From Desulfuromonadaceae bacterium (lineage in GTDB: Bacteria; Desulfobacterota; Desulfuromonadia; Geobacterales; Pseudopelobacteraceae): a stretch of DNA of 64,000 bases. Shown piece after piece: positions 6,122-28,602 of this stretch. The translations under genes were made by a program, and so were the position numbers. Below the pieces are notes generated by a model. It did no database searches. It had not been told where the DNA came from and saw only the letters and a list, made by a program, of their open reading frames with translations. The stretch lies in contig JAQTXD010000004.1 in NCBI GenBank assembly GCA_028688955.1, positions 8,249 through 72,248 on the forward strand, given 5' to 3'. The first letter of the stretch is position 1; each line of letters begins with the position of its first letter.

Positions 6122-6785
6122 CGCAGATCGTGCTCTGGAAGCCTATCTGAAGGCACTTTTCGATACTGATAAACCAACTGCACTGAGGATTGTCCAGAAC
6201 GCGCTTGACGGTGGGATGACTCCCGAGAAGGTCGTTTTCGACATCATTATCCCGGGCATGGAGCGGATGGTTGGCGGGATGATTTCCGACAATCTGGTTA
6301 CGCTGTCCCAACATTTTCTGGCGGCGCAGATCGCTGAGGAGGTTGTTGACCGGCTGATTCCCCTGTTTGCATCTGTCCCCAAAATTCGCGGCCACGTCGT
6401 CATCGGCACCAGTCACGGCGATTTTCACGGACTTGGCAAGAAGATCGTCATCGGCTGCCTGCGGGCCAGTATGTTTGAAATTACCGATCTGGGAATTAAT
6501 GTCAACCCGGAGCGTTTTGTTGATGAGGCGGTTGCCGCTGGCGCAGAGGTTATCGCCATATCCTCCATGATGGTTCACACCGCTACCGGGGAGTTCGGAG
6601 CGAAGCAGGTGCGCCGGATTCTTAAGAGCCGCGGGCTGGAGGGGAGGCTACGCATCATTGTCGGCGGTGCACCATACCGTTTTCATGACAACCTGTTTCG
6701 TGAGGTCGGGGCTGATGCCTGGGCTGACAGTGCAGCGGAGGCGCCTGCCGTTGTGGCACGTCTGGTGCGAGAGGTGCGATCATGA
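6108..6785 (+). CDS. Corrinoid (cobalamin)-binding protein, MtaC/MtbC-like methyltransferase cognate corrinoid protein
   Basis: 225 aa with an N-terminal helical cap plus a Rossmann B12-binding domain. DxHxxG is present as GDFHGLG, and the downstream GG motif as IVGGAP. AGGAGGA RBS at 6096-6102. Overlaps the kinase stop by 14 nt. Confidence 0.8.
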   Translation: MTVHSADRALEAYLKALFDTDKPTALRIVQNALDGGMTPEKVVFDIIIPGMERMVGGMISDNLVTLSQHFLAAQIAEEVVDRLIPLFASVPKIRGHVVIGTSHGDFHGLGKKIVIGCLRASMFEITDLGINVNPERFVDEAVAAGAEVIAISSMMVHTATGEFGAKQVRRILKSRGLEGRLRIIVGGAPYRFHDNLFREVGADAWADSAAEAPAVVARLVREVRS

Positions 6786-7813: not shown

Positions 7814-7822
7814 GGATGGCGT

Positions 7823-8410
7823 ATGAGTGAGGTGGAACGATTAATCGGCTGCGGTATTCTTGGCAAGGAGATTCGTTATCTGGCCGAAAAAAACGGCTGG
7901 AATCTGGCGATGACGTTTCTCCCCTCCGGCCTGCACGTAGACTTTGGAAAACTTCGCATTTCTCTGGAAAAAACGTTACAATTTCATGCCGGTGAGGCTG
8001 CCGTTGTATTTTACGGTGCCTGTCATCCCTGCATGGAGCATATTCTGGATGCTGCCCATGTTATCCGCACCGCGGGCCAGAATTGCGTTGATATCTACCT
8101 GGGACACGAGATGTTCTGTCGCGAGCTGGAGCAGGGCGCGTTTTTTTTGTTTGAAGATTGGGCGCTGCACTGGGACACTATTGTCGGTGCTGTTATCCCG
8201 GGCAGCCCGGAAATAATGCGGAGCATTTTCCGCGGTGCCCATACCTATATACTGGCGATTCGCACCCCCTGCTCGGCTGATTTCAGTGCTGAGGCGGAGG
8301 CCGTGAGCGCCATGACGACACTTGACCTGCGCTGGGTAGACGTAGGGCTTGAACATCTCGAAGCAAATCTTGTGGAGACGCTTTTCCGCGCTAAGGCAGG
8401 AGCACAATGA
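7823..8410 (+). CDS. DUF1638-like protein (family usually found beside corrinoid methyltransferase genes)
   Basis: 195 aa. Recognised from memory of the family (about 200 aa, conserved Cys/His-containing segments such as FYGACHPCMEHIL) and from its classical position after a corrinoid/URO-D pair. Needs HMM confirmation. Confidence 0.55.
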   Translation: MSEVERLIGCGILGKEIRYLAEKNGWNLAMTFLPSGLHVDFGKLRISLEKTLQFHAGEAAVVFYGACHPCMEHILDAAHVIRTAGQNCVDIYLGHEMFCRELEQGAFFLFEDWALHWDTIVGAVIPGSPEIMRSIFRGAHTYILAIRTPCSADFSAEAEAVSAMTTLDLRWVDVGLEHLEANLVETLFRAKAGAQ

Positions 8411-10869
8411 TACCTGACGGACAACTCACCCATGAAAAAATTGCTGAACTCGAACAGCGCATTTCTGAATTGGCGCAAAGCAAGGCGCGGCTTGAACTGC
8501 TTAACCGTCTGCTGACCAGTCTCAGTGAAGTTGCCGGACTTGATAACATGGTGCAGCATATTCTCAACGTCCTGATGCAGACCATTGGTGCGGCCAATAT
8601 ATCGATAATTTTCCGGGTGGGCGACAATTGGCGGTACCGGGATGTCTTCGGGGCGAGCGGACTGTTTCAGGAATCCGACAACCCGGATGTCGTCACCGCG
8701 CTGGCCGACGGCAAACCGGTGCGGATCAGCCAGGGCGTACTGCAGGACGTATCCGCCGGTGAAGCCGATTTGATACAGGTAGAGGAGTGGATATATCCGC
8801 TGGTGTCTCAGGAACGAAAAATTGGTGCCATCTGCATGGACGGTATGCAGTTCTCCGATACCGGTATCTTCAAGGAACTCATCCCCTTTTTCGTGTATGC
8901 CGGTCTGATGCTGGACAACGAAATTTCAAATTATTCCCTTCTGTCGGAAGCGCACCAGCGTCTGCAGGATTCGGAAACCCTCTACCGGACCCTGTTTGAC
9001 GAGTCGCCGGCAGGAGTAGTGCTCTGGAGCGTTCCCGATCTCAGGCCGCTGCAGTTCAATACTGCAGCCCATGCACAGCTTGACTATACCCGGGAAGAGT
9101 TTGCCGGCCTGACCGTCTCGGATTTTGAAGCGGCCAAGAGTGCAGCTGATATGGAAGATACCTCTGTAATCCTGCGGCGGGACGGGATTGTCAATTTTGA
9201 GACGATACATCGAACCAAGGGGGGTGATATCCGCTCGATGGCTATTACCCTGCGGATGATCGAATTGAGTGGAGAGCCGTGTGTCATCGCACTGCACCGG
9301 GATATTACGGAAATGAACCGGACACGGGCCTCTTTGGAGGAGAATCGCCGGTTTCTGGCCGATATTATCGAATACAGCGGCATGCTGATAGCGGTTAAGG
9401 ATCGGGAGGGGCACTATGAGATAGTCAACCGGAAATGGGAGGAAGTTACCGGACTGTCTCGCAGTGAAGCCATTGGCAAAACTGATGAAGAGCTGTTTCC
9501 CGGATCGAGTGGCAAACTGTTCCGGGCAAACGATCTGGAAGTTATTGAGGGGGATTGCTGCATCGAGAGGGAGGAATACTTTGATGATGCCGTGAAAGGC
9601 CGCCAGTATGGAATTTCGACAAAGTTTCCCCTGAAAGCCGCAGACGGCACGATCAGTGGGCTCTGTCTCATGAGTACGGATATTACAGACCGGAAGCGTT
9701 CGGAGGAAGAGCGGCTGAATCTTGAAAAACAGCTCCTCCATTCACAGAAACTTAAAAGCCTGGGCGTGTTGGCCGGCGGCATTGCCCATGACTTCAACAA
9801 CATCCTCACCGCCATCATCGGCAATGCCGATCTGGCCCTGATGCGCATCAACAAGGAATCACCGGCGGTGGACAACCTGCATCGCATTGAACATGCCGCC
9901 GCCCGTGCGGCCGACCTCGCCAAACAGATGCTTGCCTATTCCGGAAAGGGCAAGTTCGTGGTCGAGAATATAAACCTGAACGTCCTGCTGGAAGATATGC
10001 TGCACATGCTGGAAGTCTCCATTTCAAAAAAAGCGGTGCTGCGGCTCAACCCCCATCAGCAACTCCCGGTGGTAGAGGCAGATGCGACCCAGATCCGCCA
10101 GATCGTCATGAATCTGGTGATCAACGCTTCGGAAGCGATTGGTGACAAAAGCGGCGTTATTGCCATTACAACCGGATGTATCGACTGTAACCGGAATTAT
10201 CTGGAAGATGTCTGGCTGGATGAGAATCTGAACGATGGTCTGTATGTGTATCTGGAAATTGCTGATACCGGATGCGGCATGGATAAGGAGACTCTGTCCA
10301 AGCTGTTTGATCCTTTTTTTACGACGAAATTTACCGGTAGAGGTCTTGGTATGGCTGCTGTACTCGGTATCGTACGAGGGCACAAGGGTGCTATCAAGGT
10401 TTACAGCGAGCAGAATAAAGGCACCACCTTCAAGATTCTGCTTCCTTCATCTGGCAAACCGCCCGAAGTTTTCAACGGTACCTCTCCCGGCAACGCATGG
10501 CACGGCAACGGGGTTGTACTGCTGGTCGATGACGAAGAAACCATTCGTGGCCTCGGCATTCAGATGTTGAAAGAGATCGGCTTTAGCGCCATCACCGCCG
10601 ATGACGGCAGAGAGGCGCTGGAGATTTTCAAATCCAGGGATGACATTGCTTTTGTTATCCTTGATCTTACCATGCCGCATATGGATGGCGAGCAATGTTT
10701 CCGTGAGTTACGGCAGCTGAATCCGGACGTCAAGGTAATCATGTCCAGCGGTTTTAACGAGCAGGAAGTGACGCAGAAGTTCATCGGCAAGGGGTTGGCC
10801 GGCTTCCTGCAGAAACCGTATAAGCTGTCGACACTCCAGTCTACGATTCAAAAAGTATTAAAACAGTAA
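8407..10869 (+). CDS. Cytoplasmic hybrid sensor histidine kinase (coiled coil, GAF, PAS, PAS, HisKA, HATPase_c, receiver)
   Basis: 820 aa with no TM segment. GAF-like N-terminal region, then two PAS-like segments (YRTLFDESPAGVVLW; FLADIIEYSGMLIAVKD). The H-box, ATPase and receiver are near-identical to those of the 3503-6121 kinase. ATGA overlap with the DUF1638 gene. Confidence 0.85.
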   Translation: MIPDGQLTHEKIAELEQRISELAQSKARLELLNRLLTSLSEVAGLDNMVQHILNVLMQTIGAANISIIFRVGDNWRYRDVFGASGLFQESDNPDVVTALADGKPVRISQGVLQDVSAGEADLIQVEEWIYPLVSQERKIGAICMDGMQFSDTGIFKELIPFFVYAGLMLDNEISNYSLLSEAHQRLQDSETLYRTLFDESPAGVVLWSVPDLRPLQFNTAAHAQLDYTREEFAGLTVSDFEAAKSAADMEDTSVILRRDGIVNFETIHRTKGGDIRSMAITLRMIELSGEPCVIALHRDITEMNRTRASLEENRRFLADIIEYSGMLIAVKDREGHYEIVNRKWEEVTGLSRSEAIGKTDEELFPGSSGKLFRANDLEVIEGDCCIEREEYFDDAVKGRQYGISTKFPLKAADGTISGLCLMSTDITDRKRSEEERLNLEKQLLHSQKLKSLGVLAGGIAHDFNNILTAIIGNADLALMRINKESPAVDNLHRIEHAAARAADLAKQMLAYSGKGKFVVENINLNVLLEDMLHMLEVSISKKAVLRLNPHQQLPVVEADATQIRQIVMNLVINASEAIGDKSGVIAITTGCIDCNRNYLEDVWLDENLNDGLYVYLEIADTGCGMDKETLSKLFDPFFTTKFTGRGLGMAAVLGIVRGHKGAIKVYSEQNKGTTFKILLPSSGKPPEVFNGTSPGNAWHGNGVVLLVDDEETIRGLGIQMLKEIGFSAITADDGREALEIFKSRDDIAFVILDLTMPHMDGEQCFRELRQLNPDVKVIMSSGFNEQEVTQKFIGKGLAGFLQKPYKLSTLQSTIQKVLKQ
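9679..10827. repeat. Copy 2 of the ~1.15-kb paralogous duplication (transmitter plus receiver module)
   Basis: See 4892-6040. Same length and no indels detected by eye along the protein alignment. Confidence 0.8.
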
Positions 10870-10937
10870 CGACTATTTCAAACGTTTGTCCCACGTGGCA
10901 CGGCTCATGCTATCTCCCGGTACAGGGGGATACATTT

Positions 10938-11504
10938 ATGAGTAGATCAATACTGATTTGTGATGACGAACCGCTCATCAGAACGAACCTGAAGAGTATG
11001 TTGGTTGATCTCGGTTTTGATGAGATCCTGGAATGCGGAGACGGCGCAAAAGCCGTTGAGCTGGCGTTGGCAAGCTTTCCCGATATTGCGATTCTTGATG
11101 TTTCCATGCCCGGAATGGATGGCATAAGCGCTGCGATCGAGATCAGAAAAAAACTGAAAATCCCCATCATGCTGCTGACCAGCGCCTGTGACGGCGCGAC
11201 TGTAAAACGGGCATCTGCAAGCGGGATTGCCGCTTATTTAACCAAACCCCTCCGCCAGCAGGACCTGTTGCCTGCCATAGAGATAGCCCTGCAGCACACA
11301 GAAGCGATTGAAGAGTTGAAAGAAAAAATCGATGATCTGCACGAGCTGATTGAGAATCGTAAGGTCATTGAAAAAGCCAAGGGTTTGATAATGGAAAAGA
11401 ACCACTTGTCTGAGGCGGAGGCGTATCGCGCCATGCAGAAAACGGCAATGGACAAGCGGAAAACTCTGCTGCAGGTTGCAGGGGGCATTTTGAAGGAAGG
11501 GTAG
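10938..11504 (+). CDS. ANTAR-domain response regulator (receiver plus RNA-binding antiterminator output; AmiR/NasT/GnfR type)
   Basis: 188 aa. Receiver: ILICDDEP...ILDVSMPGMDG...TKP. A coiled linker is followed by an ANTAR helix bundle: RKVIEKAKGLIMEKNHLSEAEAYRAMQKTAMDKRKTL. Confidence 0.85.
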   Translation: MSRSILICDDEPLIRTNLKSMLVDLGFDEILECGDGAKAVELALASFPDIAILDVSMPGMDGISAAIEIRKKLKIPIMLLTSACDGATVKRASASGIAAYLTKPLRQQDLLPAIEIALQHTEAIEELKEKIDDLHELIENRKVIEKAKGLIMEKNHLSEAEAYRAMQKTAMDKRKTLLQVAGGILKEG

Positions 11505-12702: not shown

Positions 12703-12718
12703 TGGCACACTCTATGCT
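12703..12718 (+). promoter_or_regulatory. Sigma-54 (-24/-12) promoter of the nifB operon
   Basis: TGGCAC-ACTCT-ATGCT against consensus TGGCAC-N5-TTGCW. The GG/GC spacing is correct, and the element lies 79 nt upstream of the nifB ATG. Confidence 0.7.
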
Positions 12719-15668: not shown

Positions 15669-15905
15669 ATGTGTGAAGCGGGAACTAATTTTGTTGCGAT
15701 TGCCGATGCGGCGCAACTGTTGGAAACAACCGAGGTGCGGGTGCTGATGATGCTCAAGAAAGATGAGCTGCAGGGGAAGCAGGTGGATGGCGCATGGTAT
15801 GTCGACAGGTCATCGCTGAAACTCTGTGAAAAACCGAAAGCTGCTGATATTGTCAGACCGGGCGGTTGCGGCGGCGGCTGCGGCAGCGGCTGCGGCGGGC
15901 ACTAA
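15669..15905 (+). CDS. Small excisionase/MerR-like HTH protein with a C-terminal Cys/Gly tail
   Basis: 78 aa. FVAIADAAQLLETTEVRVLMMLKKDELQGKQVDGAWYVDRSSL resembles HTH_17-type domains. The tail is RPGGCGGGCGSGCGGH, encoded by a GGC/TGC triplet tract at 15861-15900. GGGGAGAG RBS. Lies 11 nt after nifV. Confidence 0.5.
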   Translation: MCEAGTNFVAIADAAQLLETTEVRVLMMLKKDELQGKQVDGAWYVDRSSLKLCEKPKAADIVRPGGCGGGCGSGCGGH

Positions 15906-15919
15906 ACAGCGGAGGGCCT

Positions 15920-16210
15920 ATGCCACTCATTGTCAAAGCATCTGATTTTAAATTTAAATATCCACGGGACATTGAAAATCGCGAACAGCCCAAGTTCATC
16001 GGTCTGCCTGACCCTGCTCCGTTCAACCGCGATGACCTCTATGATATTCTGCCGATGATGACCGCTGTCATGGAAGAACTGGGGAGCGAGGATGGCGAGG
16101 TTCTGAACCTCCTGGAAGACCTGCTGAACCAGATGCCGCGATTTGTTTCCACCCGTGGCGAGGTGTTCGATTACCTGCAGGGATCGGCGAGGGAATGCTT
16201 GAGACCGTAG
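15920..16210 (+). CDS. Hypothetical protein (96 aa), family not recognised
   Basis: Start chosen at ATG 15920 behind a GGAGGG RBS. The track start at 15866 would overlap the previous gene and adds an Arg-rich junk-like N-terminus. The stop overlaps the macrodomain gene start by 16 nt. Confidence 0.45.
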   Translation: MPLIVKASDFKFKYPRDIENREQPKFIGLPDPAPFNRDDLYDILPMMTAVMEELGSEDGEVLNLLEDLLNQMPRFVSTRGEVFDYLQGSARECLRP

Positions 16211-16626
16211 GCGATATCTGGGAATACATATCTGCAGGCATAATTGCGATCACAACCAACGGGTCGCTCACCGGGAATGGGCGGGCGATCTTTGGCCGTG
16301 GGGTGGCGAGACAGGCGTCACGTAGATATCCGCAGCTGGCTGAAAAATTAGGCACATTGCTGGCAGAACAGGGCAGCCACGTGTTTGACCTTGGTTGCGG
16401 TATTGTTACTTTTCCGGTTGAGGAAACGCCCTGGTCGCTCCCGGACCTGCGCATCATCGCACGCTCAGCCCAGGAATTACGGGCATTGGCTGATATATGC
16501 GGATGGCAGCATATTATTGTTCCCCGACCGGGTTGCGGTGGCGGGGGTCTTGCATGGAGAGATGTACGGCCGCTGCTTGAGCCATGGTTTGACGAACGTT
16601 TTATCGTTATCAGCCAGCAGGAATAA
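16195..16626 (+). CDS. Macrodomain protein, TARG1/OARD1-like (predicted ADP-ribose binding or ADP-ribosyl hydrolase)
   Basis: 143 aa. GDIWEY...IAITTNG...GRGVARQ...VPRPGCGGGGLAWRDV parallels, from memory, the human TARG1 pattern GDLF...MPRIGCGLDRLQWENV. Confidence 0.65.
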   Translation: MLETVGDIWEYISAGIIAITTNGSLTGNGRAIFGRGVARQASRRYPQLAEKLGTLLAEQGSHVFDLGCGIVTFPVEETPWSLPDLRIIARSAQELRALADICGWQHIIVPRPGCGGGGLAWRDVRPLLEPWFDERFIVISQQE

Positions 16627-16698: not shown

Positions 16699-18144
16699 AT
16701 GTCCAACGCCGGTCTTCAGGGGAACAAACCCCGCACCCCCTATCACGAGTTTTACGCTGATGATTTCACGCCTCGTGACCACTACCGGCTGTTGTGGGAT
16801 AATATCAGGGCCACCGGTAACAGTGCCCTTGAGGCAAAAGCCCACGAGTCGCAGCTGGCGCTGCAGGCTGAGGGTGTAACCTTCACGGTATATGGGGAGA
16901 GTGAGGAAGGGATCGAACGCATCTGGCCCTTCGACCTGATCCCGCGCATCATTACCGCCCAGGAGTGGGTCAAGATCGAACTGGGTCTTAAACAGCGGGT
17001 GCGGGCTCTGAACCACTTCCTCGGGGATCTCTACGGCGAACAGCGCATAATCAAGGACGGGGTCATACCCCCGGAGCTTATCTATCAGGGGCGGGACTTC
17101 CGTCGTGAGATCGTCGGCATCGTGCCGCAGCGGGGGATCTATACCCATGTCAGCGGTATTGATATTATCCGTGATGAAAAAGGTGAGTTCCTGATTCTTG
17201 AAGATAATCTGCGTACACCATCCGGTGTCTCCTATATGATCGAGAACCGGGTCATAGAGCGGCGGATCATGCCGGAATTTTTCAATAAATACCGCGTACG
17301 CCGTGTTGAACACTACCCGTCCCTGCTGCTCGCCGCCCTGCGCGGGCTCTCACCGCGCGGTAAGGACAACGCCGAGATCGTGCTGCTGACCCCCGGTATC
17401 TACAACTCGGCCTATTTCGAGCACACCTTCCTTGCCAAGGAAATGGGTATTGAACTGGCCGAGGGGCGTGACATGGTCGTGGTCAACGATATTGTCTACC
17501 TGAAAACCACTACCGGTCTGCAACGGGTGGACGTGATCTACCGCCGTATCGACGATGATTTTCTTGATCCACTGGTGTTCCGCTCTGACTCCTCCCTGGG
17601 CATCGCCGGGGTAATTAATGCCTGGAGGGCGGGGAACGTTGCGATTGTCAATGCACCCGGCAGCGGCATTGCCGATGATAAGGCGGTGTACCCGTACGTG
17701 CCGGACATTATCCGCTACTACCTCGGCCAGGAACCGATCCTCAATAATGTGCATACCTACCAGATGACCAACAAGTCAGATCGTGAGTATGTTTTCGACA
17801 ACATGGAGCGGATGGTGATCAAGGCGGTCAGCGAATCCGGTGGCTACGGCATGCTCATGGGACCTTCATCGACCCCCGCTTCGCGGAAAGAGTTCATGGA
17901 TCTGGTGCTGGAGAATCCGCGCAACTATATCGCCCAGCAGGTTGTCTATCTCTCCCGTCACGTCTGCTATATGGATGGTGAGCTGGAAGCCAGGCATCTG
18001 GATCTGCGTCCGTACGTGATTTATGGCGACGATATTGAGGTCGTTCCTGGTGGGCTGACCAGGGTGGCACTTCGCAAGGGTTCGCTGGTTGTTAACTCAT
18101 CTCAGGGTGGCGGCAGCAAAGATACGTGGGTATTGGCTGAGTAA
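16699..18144 (+). CDS. Circularly permuted ATP-grasp type 2 protein (COG2308-type amidoligase)
   Basis: 481 aa. Its N-terminus, length and position upstream of alpha-E and transglutaminase genes match the conserved COG2308-COG2307-COG1305 triad. Confidence 0.8.
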   Translation: MSNAGLQGNKPRTPYHEFYADDFTPRDHYRLLWDNIRATGNSALEAKAHESQLALQAEGVTFTVYGESEEGIERIWPFDLIPRIITAQEWVKIELGLKQRVRALNHFLGDLYGEQRIIKDGVIPPELIYQGRDFRREIVGIVPQRGIYTHVSGIDIIRDEKGEFLILEDNLRTPSGVSYMIENRVIERRIMPEFFNKYRVRRVEHYPSLLLAALRGLSPRGKDNAEIVLLTPGIYNSAYFEHTFLAKEMGIELAEGRDMVVVNDIVYLKTTTGLQRVDVIYRRIDDDFLDPLVFRSDSSLGIAGVINAWRAGNVAIVNAPGSGIADDKAVYPYVPDIIRYYLGQEPILNNVHTYQMTNKSDREYVFDNMERMVIKAVSESGGYGMLMGPSSTPASRKEFMDLVLENPRNYIAQQVVYLSRHVCYMDGELEARHLDLRPYVIYGDDIEVVPGGLTRVALRKGSLVVNSSQGGGSKDTWVLAE

Positions 18145-18158
18145 GGAGGAGGAATATC

Positions 18159-19094
18159 ATGTTAAGTCGTATAGCCGATTCTATGTATTGGATGGCCCGT
18201 TATCTGGAGCGGGCCGGGGAAACCGCCCGTCTGATGGAGATCAACCTGCTCTATCTGGTTGAGGCGGAAGAGGATATGGGCGAAGAGGACAAATGGCGGC
18301 CGATCCTGCAGATAAACTCATCGGAGCCGCTCTATGACGAACAGTTCGGCGGCGGCATCAGTACGCCGCGCGTGTTGCAGTTTATCAGTGCCGGACGTTC
18401 AAATCCCAGCTCCATCCGCACCTGCCTGCGTCTTTTCCGGGAGAATGCCCGGGTTGCGCGCGATCGCATTTCCAAAGAGATGTGGGAGGCGGTCAATGAA
18501 ATCTGGATGAACTTTGACGAACGGCTGAAGGGATCATTGACTCCTGAACGGGCCGGAGCCATTTTTGTTGAGTTACGCAACCAGGTGGCGCGCTTTAACG
18601 GATTGGTTGCCTCCACCATGATGCGTGGCGAGGCGTATGCGTTCTACCAGCTGGGGGGATGTCTCGAACGTGCCGACATGACCGCCCGTACACTTGATAT
18701 CAAGTATCATATTATTCTGCCTGATCTCTCCATGGTTGGATCTGCGCTAGACTATTACCAGTGGGCTGCCCTGCTCAAATCATTGTCCGGATTCGAAGCG
18801 TTCCGGCGCAATTACCATTCTGCCTTCATGCCGGCAGACGTCGCCGAATTTGTTGTTCTTAACCGTGAATTCCCCCGGTCGATCGTTTTTTCCGTGAAGC
18901 ATATGGGCGGGGCCCTGCAGGCGATTGGCCTGGAGAACAAGGCGGCGACCGAGGCGGCGTTTCAGAGTCTGAGTGAATCGGTAGAGGTGACCGTGAAGCA
19001 GATATTCGATAACGGTCTGCACGAATACCTGGATGAATTGCTGCGACGACTGTCACTGCTCCACGGTGCTCTGGCGGAAGAATTTTTTCAATAG
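18159..19094 (+). CDS. Alpha-E domain protein (COG2307)
   Basis: 311 aa. The N-terminus MLSRIADSMYWMARYLERAGETARL is the characteristic alpha-E family start. Confidence 0.8.
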   Translation: MLSRIADSMYWMARYLERAGETARLMEINLLYLVEAEEDMGEEDKWRPILQINSSEPLYDEQFGGGISTPRVLQFISAGRSNPSSIRTCLRLFRENARVARDRISKEMWEAVNEIWMNFDERLKGSLTPERAGAIFVELRNQVARFNGLVASTMMRGEAYAFYQLGGCLERADMTARTLDIKYHIILPDLSMVGSALDYYQWAALLKSLSGFEAFRRNYHSAFMPADVAEFVVLNREFPRSIVFSVKHMGGALQAIGLENKAATEAAFQSLSESVEVTVKQIFDNGLHEYLDELLRRLSLLHGALAEEFFQ

Positions 19095-19191
19095 GGGGGA
19101 CACCGCGCGTGCCCTCGATGCAACATCCCGGTGTCGGTAACTCCGGGGCGGTGTGCTGCTGTTGCCGTACCTGAAACCAGAGGAGAAGTAC

Positions 19192-20070
19192 ATGCGGTAT
19201 CTTATAGAACACGAAACGATCCTTGAGTATCCTCAGATGGTCCGTGAACATCATGTTGAGCTGCGTCTGGCACCACGCGCGGACGGGCATCAAAAGGTTC
19301 TTTCCTGCGCCATGGAAACGGAACCGGACGCAGAAATGGCGTCCTATTTCGATTATTTTGGTAATCGGGTGGATTATTTCTGCGTGATCCAGCCACACAC
19401 CCGTCTCGTGACGCGTTTGAAGAGCGAAGTGGAAACCCTGCAGCAGAACCCGTTCAATTTTGAGGCGATAGCAGCAGTCGACGAACAGGAATGGTTGCAA
19501 AAAACAATTCGGCGCACCCCTCCGATGAACGATTATGTTCTTCATCGCAGTCTGTTGACACCGTCAGCTATGAAGCTGGCCGAAGCGGTCGCGTGTGCTT
19601 TCCCAAGACGTGATAGCGAGCAACCGGTGCTGGATTCGCTTATGGCGTTGCTGGAGTGGGTACCATCGGTGCTGGAGTATCGATCCGGCAGTACTGAGGT
19701 CCACGGCTCATTAACCGCTGCTGTGCGTCAGGGGGGCGGAGTCTGCCAGGATTTTGCCCATCTTTTCATCACTGTGGCACGCTCATGGGGAGTTCCCGCT
19801 CGCTATGTCATGGGGTATCTTGATCCCGGCATCAGTCAGGTTGGTGAACCGCTGGCAACCCACGCCTGGGCAGAGGTTCTGGTACCGGGTGCCGGATGGA
19901 TCGGCTTTGACGCAACCCATAACCTGTTGGCGAATGATCACTATGTAGCGGTTGCGGTCGGTCGGGACTCCTACGATGCTGCACCCCAACGTGGCAGCTT
20001 TAAAGGGGAGCCATCAGGTGAACTGCCGACAGTAACAGTAACGATGCAGGGACAGGGCCAGGAACAGTAG
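19192..20070 (+). CDS. Transglutaminase-like cysteine peptidase family protein (Bact_transglu_N plus transglutaminase core)
   Basis: Start chosen at ATG 19192 behind a GAGGAG RBS (MRYLIEHET...). The catalytic Cys context is GGGVCQDFAHLF, with His/Asp in HAWAEVLVPGAGWIGFDATHN. Confidence 0.85.
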   Translation: MRYLIEHETILEYPQMVREHHVELRLAPRADGHQKVLSCAMETEPDAEMASYFDYFGNRVDYFCVIQPHTRLVTRLKSEVETLQQNPFNFEAIAAVDEQEWLQKTIRRTPPMNDYVLHRSLLTPSAMKLAEAVACAFPRRDSEQPVLDSLMALLEWVPSVLEYRSGSTEVHGSLTAAVRQGGGVCQDFAHLFITVARSWGVPARYVMGYLDPGISQVGEPLATHAWAEVLVPGAGWIGFDATHNLLANDHYVAVAVGRDSYDAAPQRGSFKGEPSGELPTVTVTMQGQGQEQ

Positions 20071-20168
20071 GACGGATTCCTGACAGTACTTTTTTCTCCA
20101 CGTTTCCTGCTTCACCGTGGTATTTTCTGCCCAATATGAACTAACCTGAAATCCTGAAAGAGACAACG

Positions 20169-21143
20169 ATGTCCGCACCACAATCCATGAAAATAGAAAC
20201 ATTCTTTACCATAGAGATGCCATACCGTGAGCGGATGGATATCCGTCGCACCGTATTTACGGGCGGCGATGGCCCCCGGGTTGCCGTTACTGCCGGAATT
20301 CACGGTGATGAGCTCGAGGGTCTCTATGTCTGTCACCGGTTGGCCGTCTGGCTGGACGAGCTGCAGCGGACTTCTCCCGGAGCCCTGCGCGGAAGCGTTG
20401 AGCTGTACCCGGCGATAAACACTCTGGGGCTTGATACCTTGACCCGTGGTCTGCCGGTTTTCGACACCGACCTCAACCGCGCATTTCCCGGTTCTCCGGG
20501 AGGACCGCTTCCTGAGCGGCTGGCGGCAGCACTGATGACGGAGCTTTCAGGGGCAGCACTGGTGGTTGATATCCATGCCAGCAATATTTATCTGCGTGAA
20601 ATTCCCCAGGTGCGTATCAACCAGGAGTTTGACGACCTGCTGGTTCCGATTGCCCAACGCATGAACCTGGATCTGATCTGGCTGCACGGTGCGGCGACGG
20701 TGCTGGAAACCACCGTCGCCCACAGTCTCAACAGTTGTGGCACCCCCTGTCTTGTTGCGGAAATGGGGGTCGGCATGCGTATTACTCCGGAATACTGCGA
20801 TCAACTGGTTGCGGGGATCCTGACGGTCTGGAAGGATTTGGGTGCTTTTGCTCCTGATGTGGTCGTTCCTGTGGTGGATCATGCTCCGCTGATCGCCGAC
20901 GACAGCAATGTCCATTATCTCAATGCCCAGACATCCGGCATGTTCATTCCGGCTGCGGCTCACTGGACTGATGTGCGCTGCGGAGAAATCCTCGGTACGA
21001 TTGTCTCGCCGTTTCGGAGTGAAATCCTTTCCGAAGTACGTTCGCCGGTGGACGGCGTTCTTTTTACGCTGCGGGAATATCCGCTGGTATACGAAGGATC
21101 GCTTATGGCACGGGTTATGGCACGGAAAGGGGGGAGATCATGA
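20169..21143 (+). CDS. Succinylglutamate desuccinylase/aspartoacylase (AstE/AspA, M14-like) family zinc hydrolase, copy 1
   Basis: 324 aa. The metal and active-site motifs are present: GIHGDELEG, DLNRAFPG and DIHAS. Confidence 0.75.
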   Translation: MSAPQSMKIETFFTIEMPYRERMDIRRTVFTGGDGPRVAVTAGIHGDELEGLYVCHRLAVWLDELQRTSPGALRGSVELYPAINTLGLDTLTRGLPVFDTDLNRAFPGSPGGPLPERLAAALMTELSGAALVVDIHASNIYLREIPQVRINQEFDDLLVPIAQRMNLDLIWLHGAATVLETTVAHSLNSCGTPCLVAEMGVGMRITPEYCDQLVAGILTVWKDLGAFAPDVVVPVVDHAPLIADDSNVHYLNAQTSGMFIPAAAHWTDVRCGEILGTIVSPFRSEILSEVRSPVDGVLFTLREYPLVYEGSLMARVMARKGGRS

Positions 21144-22084
21144 TTCGCAATCTGCTCTGCATGACCGCTCCGGTACGGGAAGGGTTTGACATCCCGTATC
21201 ATGAAATTGGCCCCAAATCTTCAAACCCCGCTGTTGCCCTGGTTGCCGGACTGCATGGTGATGAGCTCAACGGCATCTTCATCCTGTCTCGCCTGGCCGA
21301 TTTTTTAAATTGCGTTGAAGCCGGGAAGTATCCGGAGTTGAAACTGGTTAAGCGGGTGTTGATCATCCCCGCTGTCAACGTGCTGGGTGTCAATCTGCGT
21401 ACGCGTACCTGGCCCTTCGATAAATCGGATATCAACCGCATGTTTCCCGGCAGCACCACCGGTGAAACGACCCAGCGCATCGCGTATGCGGTGCTGGAGG
21501 CGACGAAACGTGCCGAGTACCGCATCGATATTCACACCGCCAGCAACGATTTCGAGGAAATCCCGCAGGTGCGTCTCCACGGGCCGACTGATGCAGAACG
21601 TGCAACGGCACGGCAGTTCGGACTTCCGGCGGTGATGGAACGTTCACTTTCACCGGTTTTTACCACAACCATGATGCATTCGTGGAAGGTATGGCCTGGT
21701 CAGAGCTTTGTCATGCGGGTGGGGCGCGGCAGTGCCGTCCAGTTGGACCACTGCCAGAGAGTCTTTCGGGCAATGGTCTCGTTTCTGGGCAGGATAGGTG
21801 TGCTGGAAGGGGTCGAGATTGCAATCGAAGATGAGGAGGTCTGCTGTTTTGACAAGGCAAGCGCCTTCCGTGTCTACGCAGAAAAAGCCGGTACCTTCGT
21901 TTCCGACAGCCAGGTTGGTCGCTGGGTACGGGCGGGCCAGGAGCTGGGGTATATCTACGACAGCTTTGCCGGCAATGTGATTGAAAAGGTTGTTGCCCCT
22001 GTAGCCGGTCTGCTGACCGGCATCCGCCGCCATCCGCTGCTGTTTGAGGGAGACCTGATTCTGCGGGTTAACAGAAAGGCTTGA
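21140..22084 (+). CDS. Succinylglutamate desuccinylase/aspartoacylase (AstE/AspA, M14-like) family zinc hydrolase, copy 2
   Basis: 314 aa. Motifs GLHGDELNG, DINRMFPG and DIHTAS are present. ATGA overlap with copy 1. Confidence 0.75.
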   Translation: MIRNLLCMTAPVREGFDIPYHEIGPKSSNPAVALVAGLHGDELNGIFILSRLADFLNCVEAGKYPELKLVKRVLIIPAVNVLGVNLRTRTWPFDKSDINRMFPGSTTGETTQRIAYAVLEATKRAEYRIDIHTASNDFEEIPQVRLHGPTDAERATARQFGLPAVMERSLSPVFTTTMMHSWKVWPGQSFVMRVGRGSAVQLDHCQRVFRAMVSFLGRIGVLEGVEIAIEDEEVCCFDKASAFRVYAEKAGTFVSDSQVGRWVRAGQELGYIYDSFAGNVIEKVVAPVAGLLTGIRRHPLLFEGDLILRVNRKA

Positions 22085-22090
22085 AACCAG

Positions 22091-22777
22091 ATGCTGCATA
22101 TTATTCAGAATGATCCGGACGTTCCGCCGGGGAATATACTGCATGATTGTACCATCCCGTATAGTGTCCATCACCCTTACCGAGGCGAACGTCTCCCGGA
22201 AGTTGGTGAAATATCGGCATTAATCGTAATGGGGGGGGCAATGGGAGCAAATGACGACAGTCGCCACCCGTTCCTCGCAGATCTCAAGAGCCTTATTCGA
22301 ACAGTCGTAACAGACAAAATTCCCTATCTGGGCATCTGCCTTGGCGGGCAGTTGCTGGCGGCAGCATTGGGGGGATCGGTTGTTTCAAGGCGGTGGGAGG
22401 AGTTGGGCTTTTTGAGCGTTTCACTGACACGGGATGGTGCGGCGGATCCTCTTTTCGATGGAATATCTACGGAATTCACCACCTTTCAGTGGCATCACGA
22501 CAGCTTTGATATTCCCGCCGGCGGTGTGCTGCTGGCAACGTCGCCGGACTGTCCTCACCAGGCGTTTCGTTTCGGTGATTCTGCGTGGGGATTACAGTTT
22601 CACCCGGAGGTGACCGGACAGATTATCCGTGAGTGGTGCGGGTGGGATGCGGCAACGCGGTTAAAAGCTGATGAACTTGTGTGCATGTTCGAAAAACATA
22701 GTGACAACTACTGCACAATCTCCCGGCACCTCATGGGAAATTTTCTCCTGAAAGCCGGTATGAGTTCACTGTCCTGA
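22091..22777 (+). CDS. Class I glutamine amidotransferase-like protein (GATase1)
   Basis: 228 aa. The nucleophile elbow is YLGICLGGQLL and the His/Glu pair lies in LQFHPE. Lies 6 nt after the preceding gene. Confidence 0.8.
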   Translation: MLHIIQNDPDVPPGNILHDCTIPYSVHHPYRGERLPEVGEISALIVMGGAMGANDDSRHPFLADLKSLIRTVVTDKIPYLGICLGGQLLAAALGGSVVSRRWEELGFLSVSLTRDGAADPLFDGISTEFTTFQWHHDSFDIPAGGVLLATSPDCPHQAFRFGDSAWGLQFHPEVTGQIIREWCGWDAATRLKADELVCMFEKHSDNYCTISRHLMGNFLLKAGMSSLS

Positions 22778-23599: not shown

Positions 23600-24175
23600 A
23601 TGGCAAAGCTGGACAAGCGAGATGAAATAGTTCGTGCCGCCCTGGAACTTATTGCCGAGCACGGCTTTCACGGTGCTCCAATGGCAATGATTGCCGAACG
23701 GGCAAGTGTTGGCGCCGGGACAATCTACCGTTATTTTGAAAACAAGGATGTCATGATAACGGAGCTTTTCCGGGAAATAGAAGAACGGAACTATCCGATT
23801 CTCAAGGCGGGATATGCTCCTGACCAGCCGCTTCGCGAGCGGTTTTTTCACCTGTGCACCGCACTTATGCACTATTTTATTGAAAATCCGCTTGATTTCC
23901 GGTTCATCGAGCAGTTTTTCAACTCACCCTACGGAGTGGCACATCGACGGGACAAGCTATTGGGGACAAAAGAAGGGTGCGATGTATTTAAGGAACTCTT
24001 TGAAGATGGACTCAGTCGGCAGGTTATGAAGGATCTTCCGCTTGTCATCCTCTTTGATCTGGCTTTCGGGCCGATTTTAGCGGTGGCGCGTGACCATATA
24101 CTCAGCTTCATTGTTCTGGATGATGTTTTGATCGCCAGGACGGTTGAAGCGTGCTGGGATGCCATAAAGCGGTAG
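23600..24175 (+). CDS. TetR/AcrR-family transcriptional repressor
   Basis: 191 aa with an N-terminal HTH (IVRAALELIAEHGFHGAPMAMIAERASVGAGTIYRYFENKD). Positioned directly upstream of the RND pump genes. Confidence 0.85.
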   Translation: MAKLDKRDEIVRAALELIAEHGFHGAPMAMIAERASVGAGTIYRYFENKDVMITELFREIEERNYPILKAGYAPDQPLRERFFHLCTALMHYFIENPLDFRFIEQFFNSPYGVAHRRDKLLGTKEGCDVFKELFEDGLSRQVMKDLPLVILFDLAFGPILAVARDHILSFIVLDDVLIARTVEACWDAIKR

Positions 24176-24231
24176 TTCAAATGATAGAGCAATGTTACTT
24201 GAAAAATAATTCCAACGTGTCGAGGTACAGC

Positions 24232-25422
24232 ATGCATCACTCATTCAGCAGGATATCTGTTTACATTGCGGGCACACTTGTTGCCGCTCTTTCTCTCGCC
24301 GGCTGCAGTAAGCCAAAGCCGGCTGCTCCTCCGTCAGGACCACCGGAAGTCGGCATTATCACGATCAAACCGGAAAAAGTAGTACTTACCACGGAACTCT
24401 CCGGGCGAACAATTCCCCGGCAGATTGCCGAGGTACGTCCCCAGGTGAGCGGCATTATCCTGAAGCGACTGTTTACCGAGGGAAGTGATGTGAGCGCGGG
24501 ACAGCCGCTCTATCAGATTGATTCTGCAACCTTTGAGGCGGCATATGCCAGTGCTAAAGCCGCTCAGGCACGGGTGGAGGCAAATCTCGTTTCGCTCCGG
24601 CTCACCGAGGGTCGCTATCGTGATCTGGTGAAAATAAAGGCTGTCAGCCGGCAGGATTACGACAATGCATCCGCACAGCTGAAGCAGGCAGAAGCAGAAC
24701 TCGCAGCTGCAAAAGCAGCGGTAGAGACCGCCCGGATCAATGTGGCCTACAGCAAGGTGACTGCTCCGATTTCCGGGAGGATAGGCCGGTCAAACGTGAC
24801 CAACGGGGCTCTGGTGACCGCCAGCCAGCCGACGGCCCTGGCAACGATCCAGCAGCTTGACTCGATGTATGTGGATATGACTCAATCGACAGCAGACCTT
24901 CTCAAACTTCGCCAGAACCTTGCCAGCGGCGTTTTGAAAAAAAGCAGTTCGGCGCAGGTCAAGCTGCTCCTGGAGGACGGTTCTGCCTATCCAGTACCGG
25001 GAACGCTTAAATTTTCTGAGGTTACGGTAGATCCGAGCACCGGCTCCGTTACACTGCGTGCGGTATTCCCCAACCCCAAACAATTTCTTCTTCCGGGCAT
25101 GTTTGTTCGCGCGATTCTGGTAGACGGAGTGCAGGAAAACGCCATTCTTGTCCCGCAACGGGGGGTGACGCGGAATCCGAAGGGTGATGCTGTCGTCATG
25201 CTTGTCGGGGCCGAGGAAAAGGCAGAACCTCGTCCGATCAAGGTTGTCAGAACGGTGGGTAACAGCTGGCTGGTCAGTGATGGGCTGAAGGCGGGAGATC
25301 GTGTCATTCTGGAAGGGTTGCAGAAGGCGCGACCGGGAACACCGGTAAAAGCGGTCCCGTTTGGCAGCGCACCGGCGGTAGCCCCTGCCGGTTCACCGCA
25401 ACCACCAGCAGCAAAAAAATAA
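24232..25422 (+). CDS. RND efflux membrane fusion (periplasmic adaptor) lipoprotein, AcrA/MexA-like
   Basis: Start chosen at ATG 24232 (MHHSFSRISVYIAGTLVAALSLAGC, with lipobox LAGC). Coiled-coil hairpin and beta-barrel regions are typical of the HlyD/AcrA family. Confidence 0.85.
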   Translation: MHHSFSRISVYIAGTLVAALSLAGCSKPKPAAPPSGPPEVGIITIKPEKVVLTTELSGRTIPRQIAEVRPQVSGIILKRLFTEGSDVSAGQPLYQIDSATFEAAYASAKAAQARVEANLVSLRLTEGRYRDLVKIKAVSRQDYDNASAQLKQAEAELAAAKAAVETARINVAYSKVTAPISGRIGRSNVTNGALVTASQPTALATIQQLDSMYVDMTQSTADLLKLRQNLASGVLKKSSSAQVKLLLEDGSAYPVPGTLKFSEVTVDPSTGSVTLRAVFPNPKQFLLPGMFVRAILVDGVQENAILVPQRGVTRNPKGDAVVMLVGAEEKAEPRPIKVVRTVGNSWLVSDGLKAGDRVILEGLQKARPGTPVKAVPFGSAPAVAPAGSPQPPAAKK

Positions 25423-25434
25423 AGGAGCCGTTCC

Positions 25435-28400
25435 ATGCCTAAATTTTTCATTAATCGCCCGATTTTTGCCTGGGTGATCGCCATCATGGTTATGCTGGTC
25501 GGGCTTCTCTCAATCAAGAAACTGCCGGTTTCCCAGTATCCGCAGATTGCTCCGCCGCAAATAGCCATCAATGCCGTGTATCCGGGGGCATCAGCCCAGA
25601 CCGTGCAGGATACGGTTACCCAGGTTATCGAACAGAAGCTGAATGGAATCGACAACCTGATCTATATGTCCTCTACCAGCGACTCGGCCGGGGCGGTAAG
25701 CATCACCCTGACTTTCAAGGCAGGTACCGACCCCAATATTGCCCAGGTTCAGGTGCAGAACAAACTGCAGCTTGCCGTGCCGCTCCTCCCCCAGATTGTC
25801 CAGCGTTCGGGGATTCAGGTTGTTAAGTCCACCAGGAACTTCCTGCTGATCGTCGGTCTCGTCTCAGAAGACGGCACCATGGACCGCAACTCCCTGACTG
25901 ACTACATGGTTTCCAACCTTCAGGAAATCATCAGCCGACTGGAAGGGGTGGGTGAGTTACAGGTGTTTGGTACTCAGAATGCCATGCGGATCTGGGTAAA
26001 CCCTGCCAAGCTGAACAACTTCCACATGACTACCAACGATGTTATTGCAGCGCTGCAGTCACAAAACGCCCAGGTATCGGCAGGACAGTTCGGTGGCATA
26101 CCGGCTAACCAGGGACAGCAGCTCAATGCAACCGTCAATGCCCGATCGCTCCTCCAAACCACGGAGCAGTTTGATGCCATCATCCTGCGCACGAACAGTG
26201 ACGGCTCTACTGTCAGGCTCAGGGATGTGGCTGAAAGTAAAATCGGCACGGAGAACTATGAGATTCAGTCGTACTACAACGGGAAACCGCTGGGGGGGAT
26301 GGCGATCCGTCTGGCCTCCGGTGCCAATGCACTGGAAACCGGTAACCGGATCAAAGCCAAGATGGAAGAGCTTTCAAAATATTTCCCTGCCGGTATGAAG
26401 GTCGTCTATCCCTACGATTCTACCCCCTTCGTCAAGATATCCATAGAAGAGGTTGTGCAGACCTTGATCGAGGCGGTCTTCCTTGTTTTTATCATCATGT
26501 TCCTTTTTCTGCAGAACATTCGCGCTACGCTGATCCCGACGATCGCGGTGCCGGTGGTTCTCCTCGGTACCATGGGGGTGCTGGCTGCAAGCGGCTACTC
26601 GATCAACACCCTGACCATGTTTGCTCTGGTTATCGTCATCGGACTGCTGGTTGACGACGCCATCGTTGTTGTCGAAAACGTGGAACGTATCATGAGCGAG
26701 GAAGGACTTTCACCCAAAGAGGCAACAATCAAGTCCATGGGGCAGATTACCAGCGCCCTCTGGGGTATTGCCACCGTACTGACGGCGGTTTTCCTCCCCA
26801 TGGCCTTCTTTCCGGGATCTACCGGCGTTATCTACCGGCAGTTTTCCGTCACAATCATCTCTGCCATGATCCTCTCGGTGATGGTAGCCATGATCCTGAC
26901 CCCTGCTCTCTGCGCCACCCTGCTCAAGCCGGTTGCAAAGGGGCACCATGCCGGCGAGACAGGCTGGTTTGCCTGGTTCTTCCGCTACTTCAACCGGGCA
27001 TTTGAATTCTGCCGGCACAATTACGAAGGGATTGTCGGTCGCTCATTCAATAAGCCGGTGCGCTATCTGGTGATCTACGGAGGTATTGTTGCCGTCATGG
27101 CGTATGTCTTTCTGCATCTTCCCACATCATTTCTACCGGATGAGGACCAGGGGTTCATAATCTGTCAGGTTCAGTTGCCGGCAGGTGCAACACAGGAGCG
27201 CACCATTCAGGTCATACGTCAGCTGGAAAAGCATTTCCTCGAAAAAGAATCCAAAACCGTGCAAGGTGTCATAACCGTGGCCGGGTTCAGTTTTGCCGGT
27301 CGGGGGCAGAATATGGGGCTTGCATTTGTCAGACTCAAGGATTGGAAGGTGCGACAAACCCCTGATCTGAAAGCCGCTGCGATTGCCGGCCGGGCTATGG
27401 GAGCGTTTTCGAAATTCAGGGACGGCCTTGCTTTTGCCTTCTCGCCACCGGCAGTACTTGAACTGGGGGTGGCAAACGGTTTTGACTTCCAGTTGCAGGA
27501 TCGTGGCGGGTTGGGGCATGAAAAACTGATGGAGGCGCGCAACATGCTTCTTGGTATGGCCATGAAAAACCCTAAACTGATGGCAGTGCGCCCCAACGGT
27601 CAGGATGACTCTCCCCAGTTCAAGCTCGACATTGACGATGTGCGGGCCGGCGCCCAGGGAGTATCTCAGGCGGATATCAACAACGTTCTTTCAACCGCGT
27701 GGGGGAGTTCATACGTTAACGACTTCATACAGAACGGCCGGGTCAAGAAGGTCTACCTCCAGTCGGATGCCCGTTACCGTATGGTACCGGAAGATATTAA
27801 CAGCTGGTATGTCAGCAACAAGAGCGGTCAGATGGTGCCGTTCTCGGCATTTGCCACTGCCCGTTGGCAGTACGGTTCTCCGCGCCTGGAACGCTACAAC
27901 GGCATTCCATCCGTTGAGGTTCTTGGACAGGCCGCACCGGGGATAAGCACCGGGGAAGCGATGGTCGAGGTGGAAAAGATGGCCGCCCAGCTGCCGCCGG
28001 GAGTCGGCTACGAATGGACCGGTCTTTCCTACGAGGAGCGGAACGCCGGTGCCCAGGCGCCGGCGCTTTATGCGATCTCGCTTCTTGTCGTGTTCCTCTC
28101 CGTTGCGGCGCTGTACGAGAGCTGGACGATTCCTTTCGTCAACCTGCTGATGCTGCCGCTTGGATTGGTGGGGGCGGTCGTTGCGGTTAAACTGCGGATG
28201 TTCCCGAATGATGTCTATCTGCAGATCGGCCTGCTCACAACGGTCGGTCTCTCAACCAAGAACGCAATCCTGATCATCCAGTTCATCAAGGAGCAGATGC
28301 ATCAAGGGCACGAGCTGGTCGAGGCGACCCTGACGGCGGTGAGAATTCGGCTTCGTCCGGTCATTATGACCTCGCTGGCGTTCTTTTTCGGTACCCTTCC

Positions 28401-28602
28401 GCTGGCGCTTACCAAGGGGGCCGGTGCCGCAGCCCAGAACGCTATCGGCAGCGCCGTTACCGGCGGGTTGCTCTCGGCAACGTTCATCGACCTGATATTC
28501 ATCCCGTTTTTCTTTGTTCTGGTCTCGCGACTGTTCGGCCGGAAGAAGTACGTACCTCATGTCGAAGAGCCCGCACCAGTTACTGCTTCGGAGGTACACT
28601 GA
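25435..28602 (+). CDS. RND multidrug efflux permease, AcrB/MexB family
   Basis: 1055 aa. The N-terminus [41 protein letters not shown] is canonical for the HAE1 family. Confidence 0.95.

Follow-up and report, generated by a model that had tools for sequence, protein, structure and literature searches.

Genes for a circularly permuted ATP-grasp amide ligase (COG2308), an Alpha-E helical protein (COG2307) and a transglutaminase-like enzyme (COG1305) form a triad; of the conserved gene clusters that still lack a known product, it is one of the most widespread. Here we examine this triad in a 64,000-nucleotide (nt) stretch of DNA from a Desulfuromonadaceae bacterium of a landfill metagenome (the window, to which all coordinates refer unless another locus is named), where the three genes, labelled G1 to G3, are followed by two paralogous AstE/AspA-type hydrolase genes (G4 and G5) and by a glutamine amidotransferase-like gene (G6). 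The triad was reportedly predicted by Iyer et al. in 2009 to be a peptide ligase or tagging system. Anbu, a proteasome beta-like Ntn-hydrolase, is frequent but not universal beside the triad and is usually encoded by the fourth gene. According to Piasecka et al. (PMC6376114), the hypotheses put forward for the Anbu operon are unconfirmed, and ATP hydrolysis by the ligase is the sole activity detected. In a 2026 preprint the homologues of the permuted ATP-grasp enzyme from M. tuberculosis, Rv2411c and Rv2567, were negative for one candidate activity. An earlier reading of the window, made from its sequence alone (the sequence-only reading), had described the triad as lacking an established product, and both sources bear this out. 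In keeping with that reading, the literature searched contains no characterised homologous cluster with a known product, and no paper joins the terms 'succinylglutamate desuccinylase', 'transglutaminase' and 'ATP-grasp' (Iyer et al. 2009 lay outside that search).

Induction of the Anbu operon by nitrogen starvation is reported in two papers on the structure of Anbu. In P. putida the triad with Anbu (PP_2685-2688) is up 11-37 fold under nitrogen limitation, in B. cenocepacia the genes I35_5080-5083 are among those most strongly dependent on NtrC and sigma-54, and the Bradyrhizobium homologue has a predicted RpoN site on its 5' side. The canonical triad is a member of the core NtrC regulon, beside urea and nitrate assimilation genes.

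The six co-directional genes of the window fill positions 16699-22777 of the forward (+) strand, and the open reading frames (ORFs) and Pfam domains agree with the coordinates and domains that the sequence-only reading had assigned. G1 (16699..18144, 481 amino acids, aa) is a full-length match to CP_ATPgrasp_2/_1 (PF14403/PF04174, E 5e-161) and to a solved but uncharacterised homologue, PDB 3N6X (E 4e-158). G2 (18159..19094, 311 aa) encodes the Alpha-E protein (PF04168, E 4e-87), and G3 (19192..20070, 292 aa) a transglutaminase-like Cys-His-Asp enzyme with the domains PF08379 (Bact_transglu_N) and PF01841 (Transglut_core). These families and their order confirm that the first three genes are the COG2308-COG2307-COG1305 triad. 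Catalytic residues are intact in the G1-like proteins, G3, G4 and G6; the G3 triad C198/H237/D253 is kept in 77/77 orthologues, and the nearest solved structure to G3 is a putative cysteine protease. The reading frame of G3 opens at a GTG at 19153, and the ATG at 19192, which gives 292 aa, is probably the true start because annotated orthologues have lengths of 288-292 aa. Alpha-E is strongly conserved and carries no enzymatic signature; a sequence search returned no solved relative for it, and its single-sequence AlphaFold2 model is unusable for fold assignment at a predicted local distance difference test score (pLDDT) of 39.7.

In place of Anbu, the fourth and fifth genes are of the AstE/AspA (M14-like) type. 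G4 (20169..21143, 324 aa) encodes a putative zinc amidohydrolase with the PF24827 AstE_AspA_cat domain (E 8e-24), and G5 (21140..22084, 314 aa) a degenerate paralogue with the same domain (E 7e-23). Pfam scans of all large ORFs between 1.2 and 25.4 kb of the window found no Anbu, proteasome or Ntn-hydrolase domain. The best reading of this module is a variant of the Anbu-type system in which Anbu is replaced by a pair of AstE-type proteins, one of them active and the other dead. The module shares with the Anbu-type operon the first three genes, their order, the intact catalytic residues and the hints of sigma-54 control and nitrogen limitation, but it has the AstE pair and not Anbu; in addition, the window has the glutamine amidotransferase-like gene, and the gut versions have a truncated Alpha-E (about 228 aa, e.g., in L031 at 8539-9225) whose match to the Pfam model is confined to the N-terminal half. 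As to function, we consider it on balance somewhat probable that the five genes G1-G5 encode a nitrogen-responsive pathway that makes and breaks a small amide; any specific substrate is much less probable than this general scheme. The cycle on gamma-glutamyl-type or poly-amino-acid linkages that the sequence-only reading had suggested is hypothetical.

The conservation of the module was assessed by gathering G4 relatives from one genome per species and then scoring all six proteins in the flanking DNA. The best 80 loci (designated by L numbers), with G4 identities of 47-87%, were analysed among at least 553 stretches with G4 relatives. The order G1-G2-G3-G4-G5 was found in 55/55 loci with sufficient flank, and the loci with shorter flank are consistent with it. 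The carriers include environmental bacteria (Desulfuromonadales/Geobacteraceae, Thiotrichales, Chromatiales, Myxococcota, Nitrospirota and Spirochaetales) as well as gut bacteria (Lachnospiraceae, Ruminococcus, Anaerostipes, Veillonellaceae, Erysipelotrichales, Prevotella and other Bacteroidales, and Treponema). The module spans at least seven bacterial phyla and, given the 553 or more stretches, is present in hundreds of species; it is far more widespread than the single window suggests. No further flanking family was found to recur across taxa 5' of G1 or 3' of G5 outside the Desulfuromonadales. The conserved unit is five genes, G1-G5; G6 and the macro-domain gene that precedes G1 in the window (G0) are local additions, because both are variably present or displaced. 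The sequence-only reading had proposed an extended cluster of six genes. This stands for G4 and G5, which accompany the triad in all 55 loci, and falls for G6, which is not part of the conserved unit: synteny of the last three genes with the triad in relatives holds for G4 and G5 and only half holds for G6.

The constant gene order also bears on the explanation that two or three unrelated units lie side by side in the window, namely the triad, a catabolic pair G4/G5 acting on N-acyl amino acids or ectoine-like compounds, and the amidotransferase. A marine lineage has G4-G5 without the triad, G6 is variably present and displaceable, and the best NCBIfam match of both G4 and G5 is DoeB (TIGR02994), an enzyme of ectoine catabolism. 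However, the DoeB scores are only in the range of 50-60 bits (50.5 for G4 and 59.7 for G5) against a cutoff of 402.7, the order is the same in every one of the 55 loci although the flanks are otherwise unrelated, the gaps are short or overlapping, and a G1-G4-G5 version exists without G2 and G3. The synteny largely refutes this explanation for G4/G5, and as a whole we regard it as very improbable.

The version without G2 and G3 comes from a metagenome scan for more distant G4-like proteins, in which five-gene modules were again recovered (L086-L088, L109 and L111). In L085 (4830-9925) a response-regulator-EAL gene is followed by G1, G4 and G5 with overlapping junctions; the second AstE is dead, and the locus contains no Alpha-E or transglutaminase-like gene. 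In this minimal, three-gene version the ligase is linked with the AstE pair directly.

Among cultured gut isolates, Anaerostipes faecalis has the five genes, with an Alpha-E of 228 aa, between an integrase/flavin-reductase and a B12 radical-SAM gene (the sequencing runs for this locus gave low-coverage fragments of unclear library type, which are uninformative on co-transcription), and Anaerovibrio slackiae also has the module. The gut G4 proteins are about 47-52% identical to the window G4 across three phyla (Bacillota, Bacteroidota and Treponema), and this uniformity suggests horizontal spread of the module within gut communities. Carriage of the module on plasmids was considered and rejected, as plasmids carry only generic relatives with <30% identity. 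Horizontal transfer of a self-sufficient trait between distant gut phyla is also what one might expect if the module made a peptide-like secondary metabolite or signal, with G1 building the compound, G3 and G4 maturing it (through cleavage of a leader or protecting residue, for instance), and G5 and G6 in accessory roles. ATP-grasp ligases often make dipeptide and peptide natural products, and their pathways commonly include peptidases that take off protecting groups. However, an exporter, a precursor-peptide gene or a tailoring enzyme conserved with the module was not found, all six proteins look cytoplasmic (none of the translations has an obvious signal-peptide-like N-terminus), and the place of the triad in the core NtrC regulon with the urea and nitrate assimilation genes points to nitrogen economy. 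A secondary metabolite or signal of this kind is in our judgement quite unlikely.

The two AstE-type proteins differ in what they have kept. In G4 the zinc ligands H45/E48/H136, the N103-R104 pair and E198 are 100% conserved in 81 orthologues, and the catalytic set is retained in 33/34 of the more distant metagenome sequences. In PDB 3CDX the counterpart of E198 is the Glu of 'tELg', and in CphZ it is the essential E251. By its residues G4 is predicted to be a catalytically complete zinc amidohydrolase; the closest solved structures are 2QJ8, 3CDX, DoeB and CphZ. G5 is 29% identical to G4. The sequence-only reading had noted that both proteins keep the HxxE, NR and DIH motifs, which they do, but G5 lacks the general base: in an alignment that includes 3CDX, R193 stands where G4 has E198. 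Among 78 G5 orthologues this position is Y (49), Q (12), R (11), F or T, and it is Glu or Asp in none of them; over about 100 orthologues, distant ones included, it is Y, Q, R, F, T, S, K or V and never E. The tally of one ligase and four hydrolase or amidotransferase activities given in the same reading is an overcount, since G5 is without the catalytic Glu in every lineage examined.

The window G5 retains the zinc ligands H39/E42/H132, whereas only about 24/78 orthologues retain H39 and H132 (about two thirds have lost them). Those with the zinc-binding His residues form a proteobacterial/environmental group to which the window belongs; in the gut group these residues are replaced by R and A/T, and distant metagenome G5 proteins have Q/H/Q,T/S at the four sites. 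N99-R100 and the GETTQRIA stretch that follows are retained in triad-linked lineages. G4 and G5 are joined by an ATGA overlap of 4 nt, as the sequence-only reading had stated, and a 4-nt overlap is found in 57/107 loci, which suggests that the two genes are translationally coupled. The missing catalytic Glu, the zinc ligands lost from most orthologues, the overlap with G4 and the homodimeric state of relatives such as CphZ (catalytic residue E251) together suggest from sequence that G5 is probably a non-catalytic partner of G4, in public annotation listed as an M14 metallopeptidase or deacylase. An obligate tandem of an active and a dead member is not described for the AstE/AspA family in the literature searched, and so consistent a pair of paralogues would clearly exemplify a pseudoenzyme partner conserved in bacteria.

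G4 shares with AstE, aspartoacylase, DoeB (the N-acetyl-diaminobutyrate, or N-acetyl-DABA, deacetylase) and CphZ an H-E-H zinc site, the catalytic Glu, an Asn-Arg carboxylate-binding motif and the two-domain length; unlike these enzymes, G4 is far under all equivalog cutoffs and G5 has no catalytic Glu. Neither protein falls into a characterised equivalog, the score for AstE (TIGR03242; 19.9 bits for G5 vs a cutoff of 305.65) lying below the cutoff as do those for DoeB. The characterised enzymes of the family, e.g., DoeB and CphZ, all act on small N-acyl amino acids or isodipeptides. In cyanophycin turnover an ATP-grasp-type ligase (CphA1) produces a nitrogen compound with isopeptide links, a peptidase (cyanophycinase) cuts this compound, and a zinc enzyme of the AstE/AspA family, CphZ (PDB 8EIN), splits the isodipeptide. 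CphZ ranks among the top structural neighbours of the G5 model, and by sequence it matches G4 and G5 weakly (E about 1e-4, in the N-terminal part only). In contrast to cyanophycin turnover, the module has neither a CphA-type synthetase (no Mur-ligase domains) nor a cyanophycinase in our domain scans, and the likeness is an analogy of logic and not one of membership.

Glutathionylspermidine synthetase/amidase (GspSA) pairs an ATP-grasp-type amide ligase with a cysteine amidase of papain-like fold that reverses the bond, and 3N6X, the solved homologue of G1, carries the deposition name 'putative glutathionylspermidine synthase'. Here, unlike in GspSA, the enzymes are separate proteins, and the cysteine enzyme is transglutaminase-like and not of the CHAP type. 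In the RimK/RimB/RimA system an ATP-grasp ligase adds residues, a peptidase removes them and an EAL regulator is present, to which the response-regulator-EAL gene with G1, G4 and G5 in L085 may be compared; however, RimK is a non-permuted ATP-grasp enzyme, RimB is a retropepsin-like aspartic protease, and the target is ribosomal protein S6. In logic the proposed pathway resembles cyanophycin turnover and GspSA, as a regulated cycle of making and breaking a small nitrogenous amide, and RimK/RimB is the third close analogy; the module belongs to none of these three families.

RimK and RimB nonetheless set a precedent, that of an ATP-grasp ligase and a reversing peptidase working on ribosomal protein S6, for what we consider the main rival explanation: a pupylation-like tagging of proteins or peptides, in which G1 would attach a tag, an amino acid or a peptide, to proteins, possibly to Alpha-E itself, and G3 and the AstE pair would remove or trim the tag. 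This hypothesis was proposed for the Anbu-type operon, as summarised in the Anbu papers. The resemblance of L085 to rimA-rimB-rimK speaks for it, as does an Alpha-E protein that is conserved so strongly without the signature of an enzyme. However, the characterised members of the AstE/AspA family act on small molecules and not on proteins, neither interaction nor peptidase activity was detected for the Anbu-operon proteins, and a gene for a target protein conserved in or beside the module was not found. Tagging is, in our view, unlikely.

The link to nitrogen status, which the sequence-only reading had drawn from gene position, has support beyond position in the induction of the canonical triad under nitrogen limitation, in sigma-54-like elements near G1 and in an NtrB/NtrC-like pair next to G4-G5 in marine loci. 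We defined a -24/-12 element as GG-N10-GC with at least 9 of 11 consensus bases. In the collected loci such elements occur at 0.37/kb around the G1 start vs 0.054/kb elsewhere, which is an enrichment of about 7-fold, and they lie 52-145 nt upstream of G1 in at least five independent lineages. Distances of 52-75 nt from the G1 ATG are found in L007 (Trichlorobacter), L009 and L011 (metagenome-assembled genomes of Desulfuromonadales/Geobacteraceae), L023 (Thiotrichales) and L111. The window has the element TGGCGGGGGTCTTGCA at 16539..16554 (+), 145 nt upstream of the G1 ATG and within the 3' end of G0, with GG and GC correctly spaced, and the identical 16-mer is present in L003, L004, L006 and L082. 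In L082 (6336-6625) G0 has decayed to frame-shifted fragments and the 16-mer is unchanged, which argues, as a single case, against its conservation by coding alone. We regard TGGCGGGGGTCTTGCA as a candidate sigma-54 promoter of the module.

A better sigma-54 match, TGGCACACTCTATGCT, lies at 12703-12718 (+), 79 nt upstream of nifB. From nifB to G6 (nifB, a GNAT gene, nifV, two small ORFs, G0 and G1-G6) all genes are on a single strand and are separated by -88 to 98 nt, and from G0 through G6 the intergenic gaps are -4 to 98 nt. None of the gaps from TGGCACACTCTATGCT to G6 contains a terminator-like site, and read-through from the nifB-nifV operon into the module is therefore possible; sigma-70 and terminator scans of the window gave nothing beyond the shuffle expectation. 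The nif genes of Geobacter are controlled by RpoN with GnfL/GnfM and, in addition, by GnfK/GnfR antitermination.

The shared strand and the lack of a predicted terminator between nifB-nifV and the module could also mean that the module has an accessory function specific to nif, in the maturation, protection or regulation of nitrogenase. Several Desulfuromonadales likewise have the module near nifV, cowN, mod genes, nifH, the macro-domain protein or an ANTAR regulator. However, the close relative L082 has the module in a context without nif genes, gut and other lineages have unrelated flanks in which cowN was not detected, and the canonical triad is induced by general nitrogen limitation in non-diazotrophic conditions. 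A nif-specific role is, in our view, very improbable. The placement between the nifB operon and cowN that the sequence-only reading had noted is correct for the window, where nifB lies upstream and cowN downstream of the module, but it is specific to some Desulfuromonadales: as with L082, the gut modules have unrelated flanks and no nif genes nearby.

Returning to the small-amide pathway, we propose that under nitrogen limitation a sigma-54 promoter and an enhancer-binding protein of the GnfM/NtrC type would switch the module on. G1, probably together with Alpha-E, would use ATP to join a carboxylate and an amine into an amide or isopeptide bond, and G3 would cleave or transfer the linkage that G1 has made. 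A heteromer of G4 and G5, with one active and one binding-only subunit, would then hydrolyse the released N-acyl-amino-acid or isodipeptide to free amino acids, and G6, where present, would remove an amide or gamma-glutamyl group. Our inferences are the joint transcription of the genes, the G4-G5 heteromer, the way the module is regulated in this organism and every step of the chemistry. A small amide is preferred because the AstE/AspA enzymes act on small substrates, because the ligase and the AstE pair stay together without G2 and G3, and because the system is associated with control by nitrogen limitation. In its fuller form, the proposal is that a small nitrogen compound with an amide or isopeptide linkage is made and recycled by the module as a reserve, buffer or signal, and that a heteromeric active/dead AstE hydrolase breaks it down; this is a doubtful possibility. 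By analogy the compound could be likened to cyanophycin dipeptides or gamma-glutamyl conjugates.

Several observations weigh against the small-amide pathway. In about 25 marine loci (within L089-L117) ilvE, a FmdB zinc-ribbon gene, an NtrB-like kinase gene and an NtrC-like regulator gene (TIGR01818, 534 bits vs a cutoff of 558.6) are followed after 4 nt by G4-G5 and then by a HemK-like methyltransferase gene (e.g., L113, 2500-9904), and no ATP-grasp, Alpha-E or transglutaminase gene is found within 8 kb. The G4-G5 pair can therefore work without a neighbouring triad, and the coupling is not obligatory. The gut G5 orthologues have D/E five residues downstream of the R193 position, and the catalytic base may be shifted in them. 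The AlphaFold2 model of G5 (pLDDT 58.7), whose top fold matches are CphZ, 3CDX, DoeB and 2QJ8, is of medium confidence and serves to assign the fold family only, not to support claims on single residues. The element TGGCGGGGGTCTTGCA has two mismatches and lies inside coding sequence, in the GCGGGGL motif of the macro domain, and its conservation could be due to coding. A search for RNA runs that contain the window sequence found none. The literature searched up to 2026 gives no substrate or product for any member of the triad, and the proteins of the Anbu operon formed no stable complexes and had no peptidase activity in vitro.

If the pathway operates as proposed, the substrate of G4 would reveal the product of the COG2308 ATP-grasp/Alpha-E/transglutaminase (Anbu-type) system. 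The family of G4 cleaves small N-acyl amino acids and isodipeptides, and therefore a substrate that accumulates in a G4 mutant should be the product of the pathway or a fragment of it. This variant makes the long-standing question of the triad's product experimentally approachable, and the module is tractable because hundreds of species, cultured gut isolates among them, carry it. The same chemistry would then be at work both in diazotrophs of the environment and in Bacillota and Bacteroidota that abound in the gut. A branch of the response to nitrogen limitation may have been overlooked, as the repeated connections with sigma-54 and NtrC suggest.

G6 (22091..22777, +, 228 aa) lies 6 nt behind G5, as the sequence-only reading had it (the gap between G1 and G2 is 14 nt). 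It encodes a stand-alone class I glutamine-amidotransferase-like protein (PF00117, E 2e-20; the PF07722 match is weaker) with no synthase domain, and all NCBIfam equivalogs are under their cutoffs (the best is PRK07053 with 145.7 vs 250). The intact Cys-His-Glu triad claimed for it is confirmed as C83 (GICLGGQ) and H171/E173 (FHPE), kept in 9/9 orthologues, and the nearest solved structures are uncharacterised stand-alone amidotransferases. G6 is found only in L001-L006, L058 and L084, all of them close Desulfuromonadales relatives, and is absent from L007-L023, L082, L083 and all gut loci. L024 has it in a displaced position, adjoining G0 and cowN at 4.7 kb from the module, and L083 lacks it with otherwise the same layout of nifV, two small ORFs, G0 and G1-G5 as the window. 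G6 is a lineage-specific accessory gene.

G0 (16195..16626, +, 143 aa) encodes a macro-domain, ADP-ribose-binding protein according to the source annotation and a PADLOC match to the N-terminal part of DarG (8e-8). It adjoins G1 in L001, L003, L004, L006, L058 and L083 and is located elsewhere in L002 and L024; it travels with the module in close relatives and stands outside the conserved unit. In relatives G0 stays near the module or near cowN, and the window region also has draG; a role of G0 in ADP-ribosylation control of nitrogenase is conceivable. The PADLOC models of defence systems gave zero matches to G1-G6. A defence system was considered and rejected, the PADLOC match being weak and confined to the neighbouring G0, as a DarG macro domain.

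The GC content is even across the region. The 5' flank consists, on the same strand, of nifB (TIGR01290, 341 bits, slightly below the cutoff of 343.65; a short form of 289 aa), the GNAT gene, nifV (TIGR02660, 520 bits), the two small ORFs and G0; on the 3' side of the module cowN lies in convergent orientation. The small ORFs 3' of nifV (15669-15905 and 15920-16210, both +) have no family match, and the first has a Cys/Gly-rich tail (GCGGGCGSGCGG). L083 also has ORFs of the same sizes 3' of nifV, and in L002 G1 is preceded by a relative of the second. Farther upstream the window has draG and a GnfR-like response regulator that contains an ANTAR domain; in this region (10896-11504, +) a good sigma-54-type element, TGGCACGGCTCATGCT, at 10896-10911 precedes the GnfR-like gene. 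In L024 an ORF with an ANTAR-like end, recognised by eye in the alignment, is located directly 5' of G1.

Two further gene sets lie in the window. At 3503-10869 (+) two large hybrid histidine kinases flank B12-binding, URO-D/MtaA-like and DUF1638 genes, which looks like a corrinoid methyltransferase-like set inside a signalling locus. At 23600-28602 (+), 3' of cowN, a TetR-family regulator and a HlyD-type membrane-fusion protein are encoded together with an ORF of 1055 aa, presumably an RND pump, and this set appears unrelated to the module.

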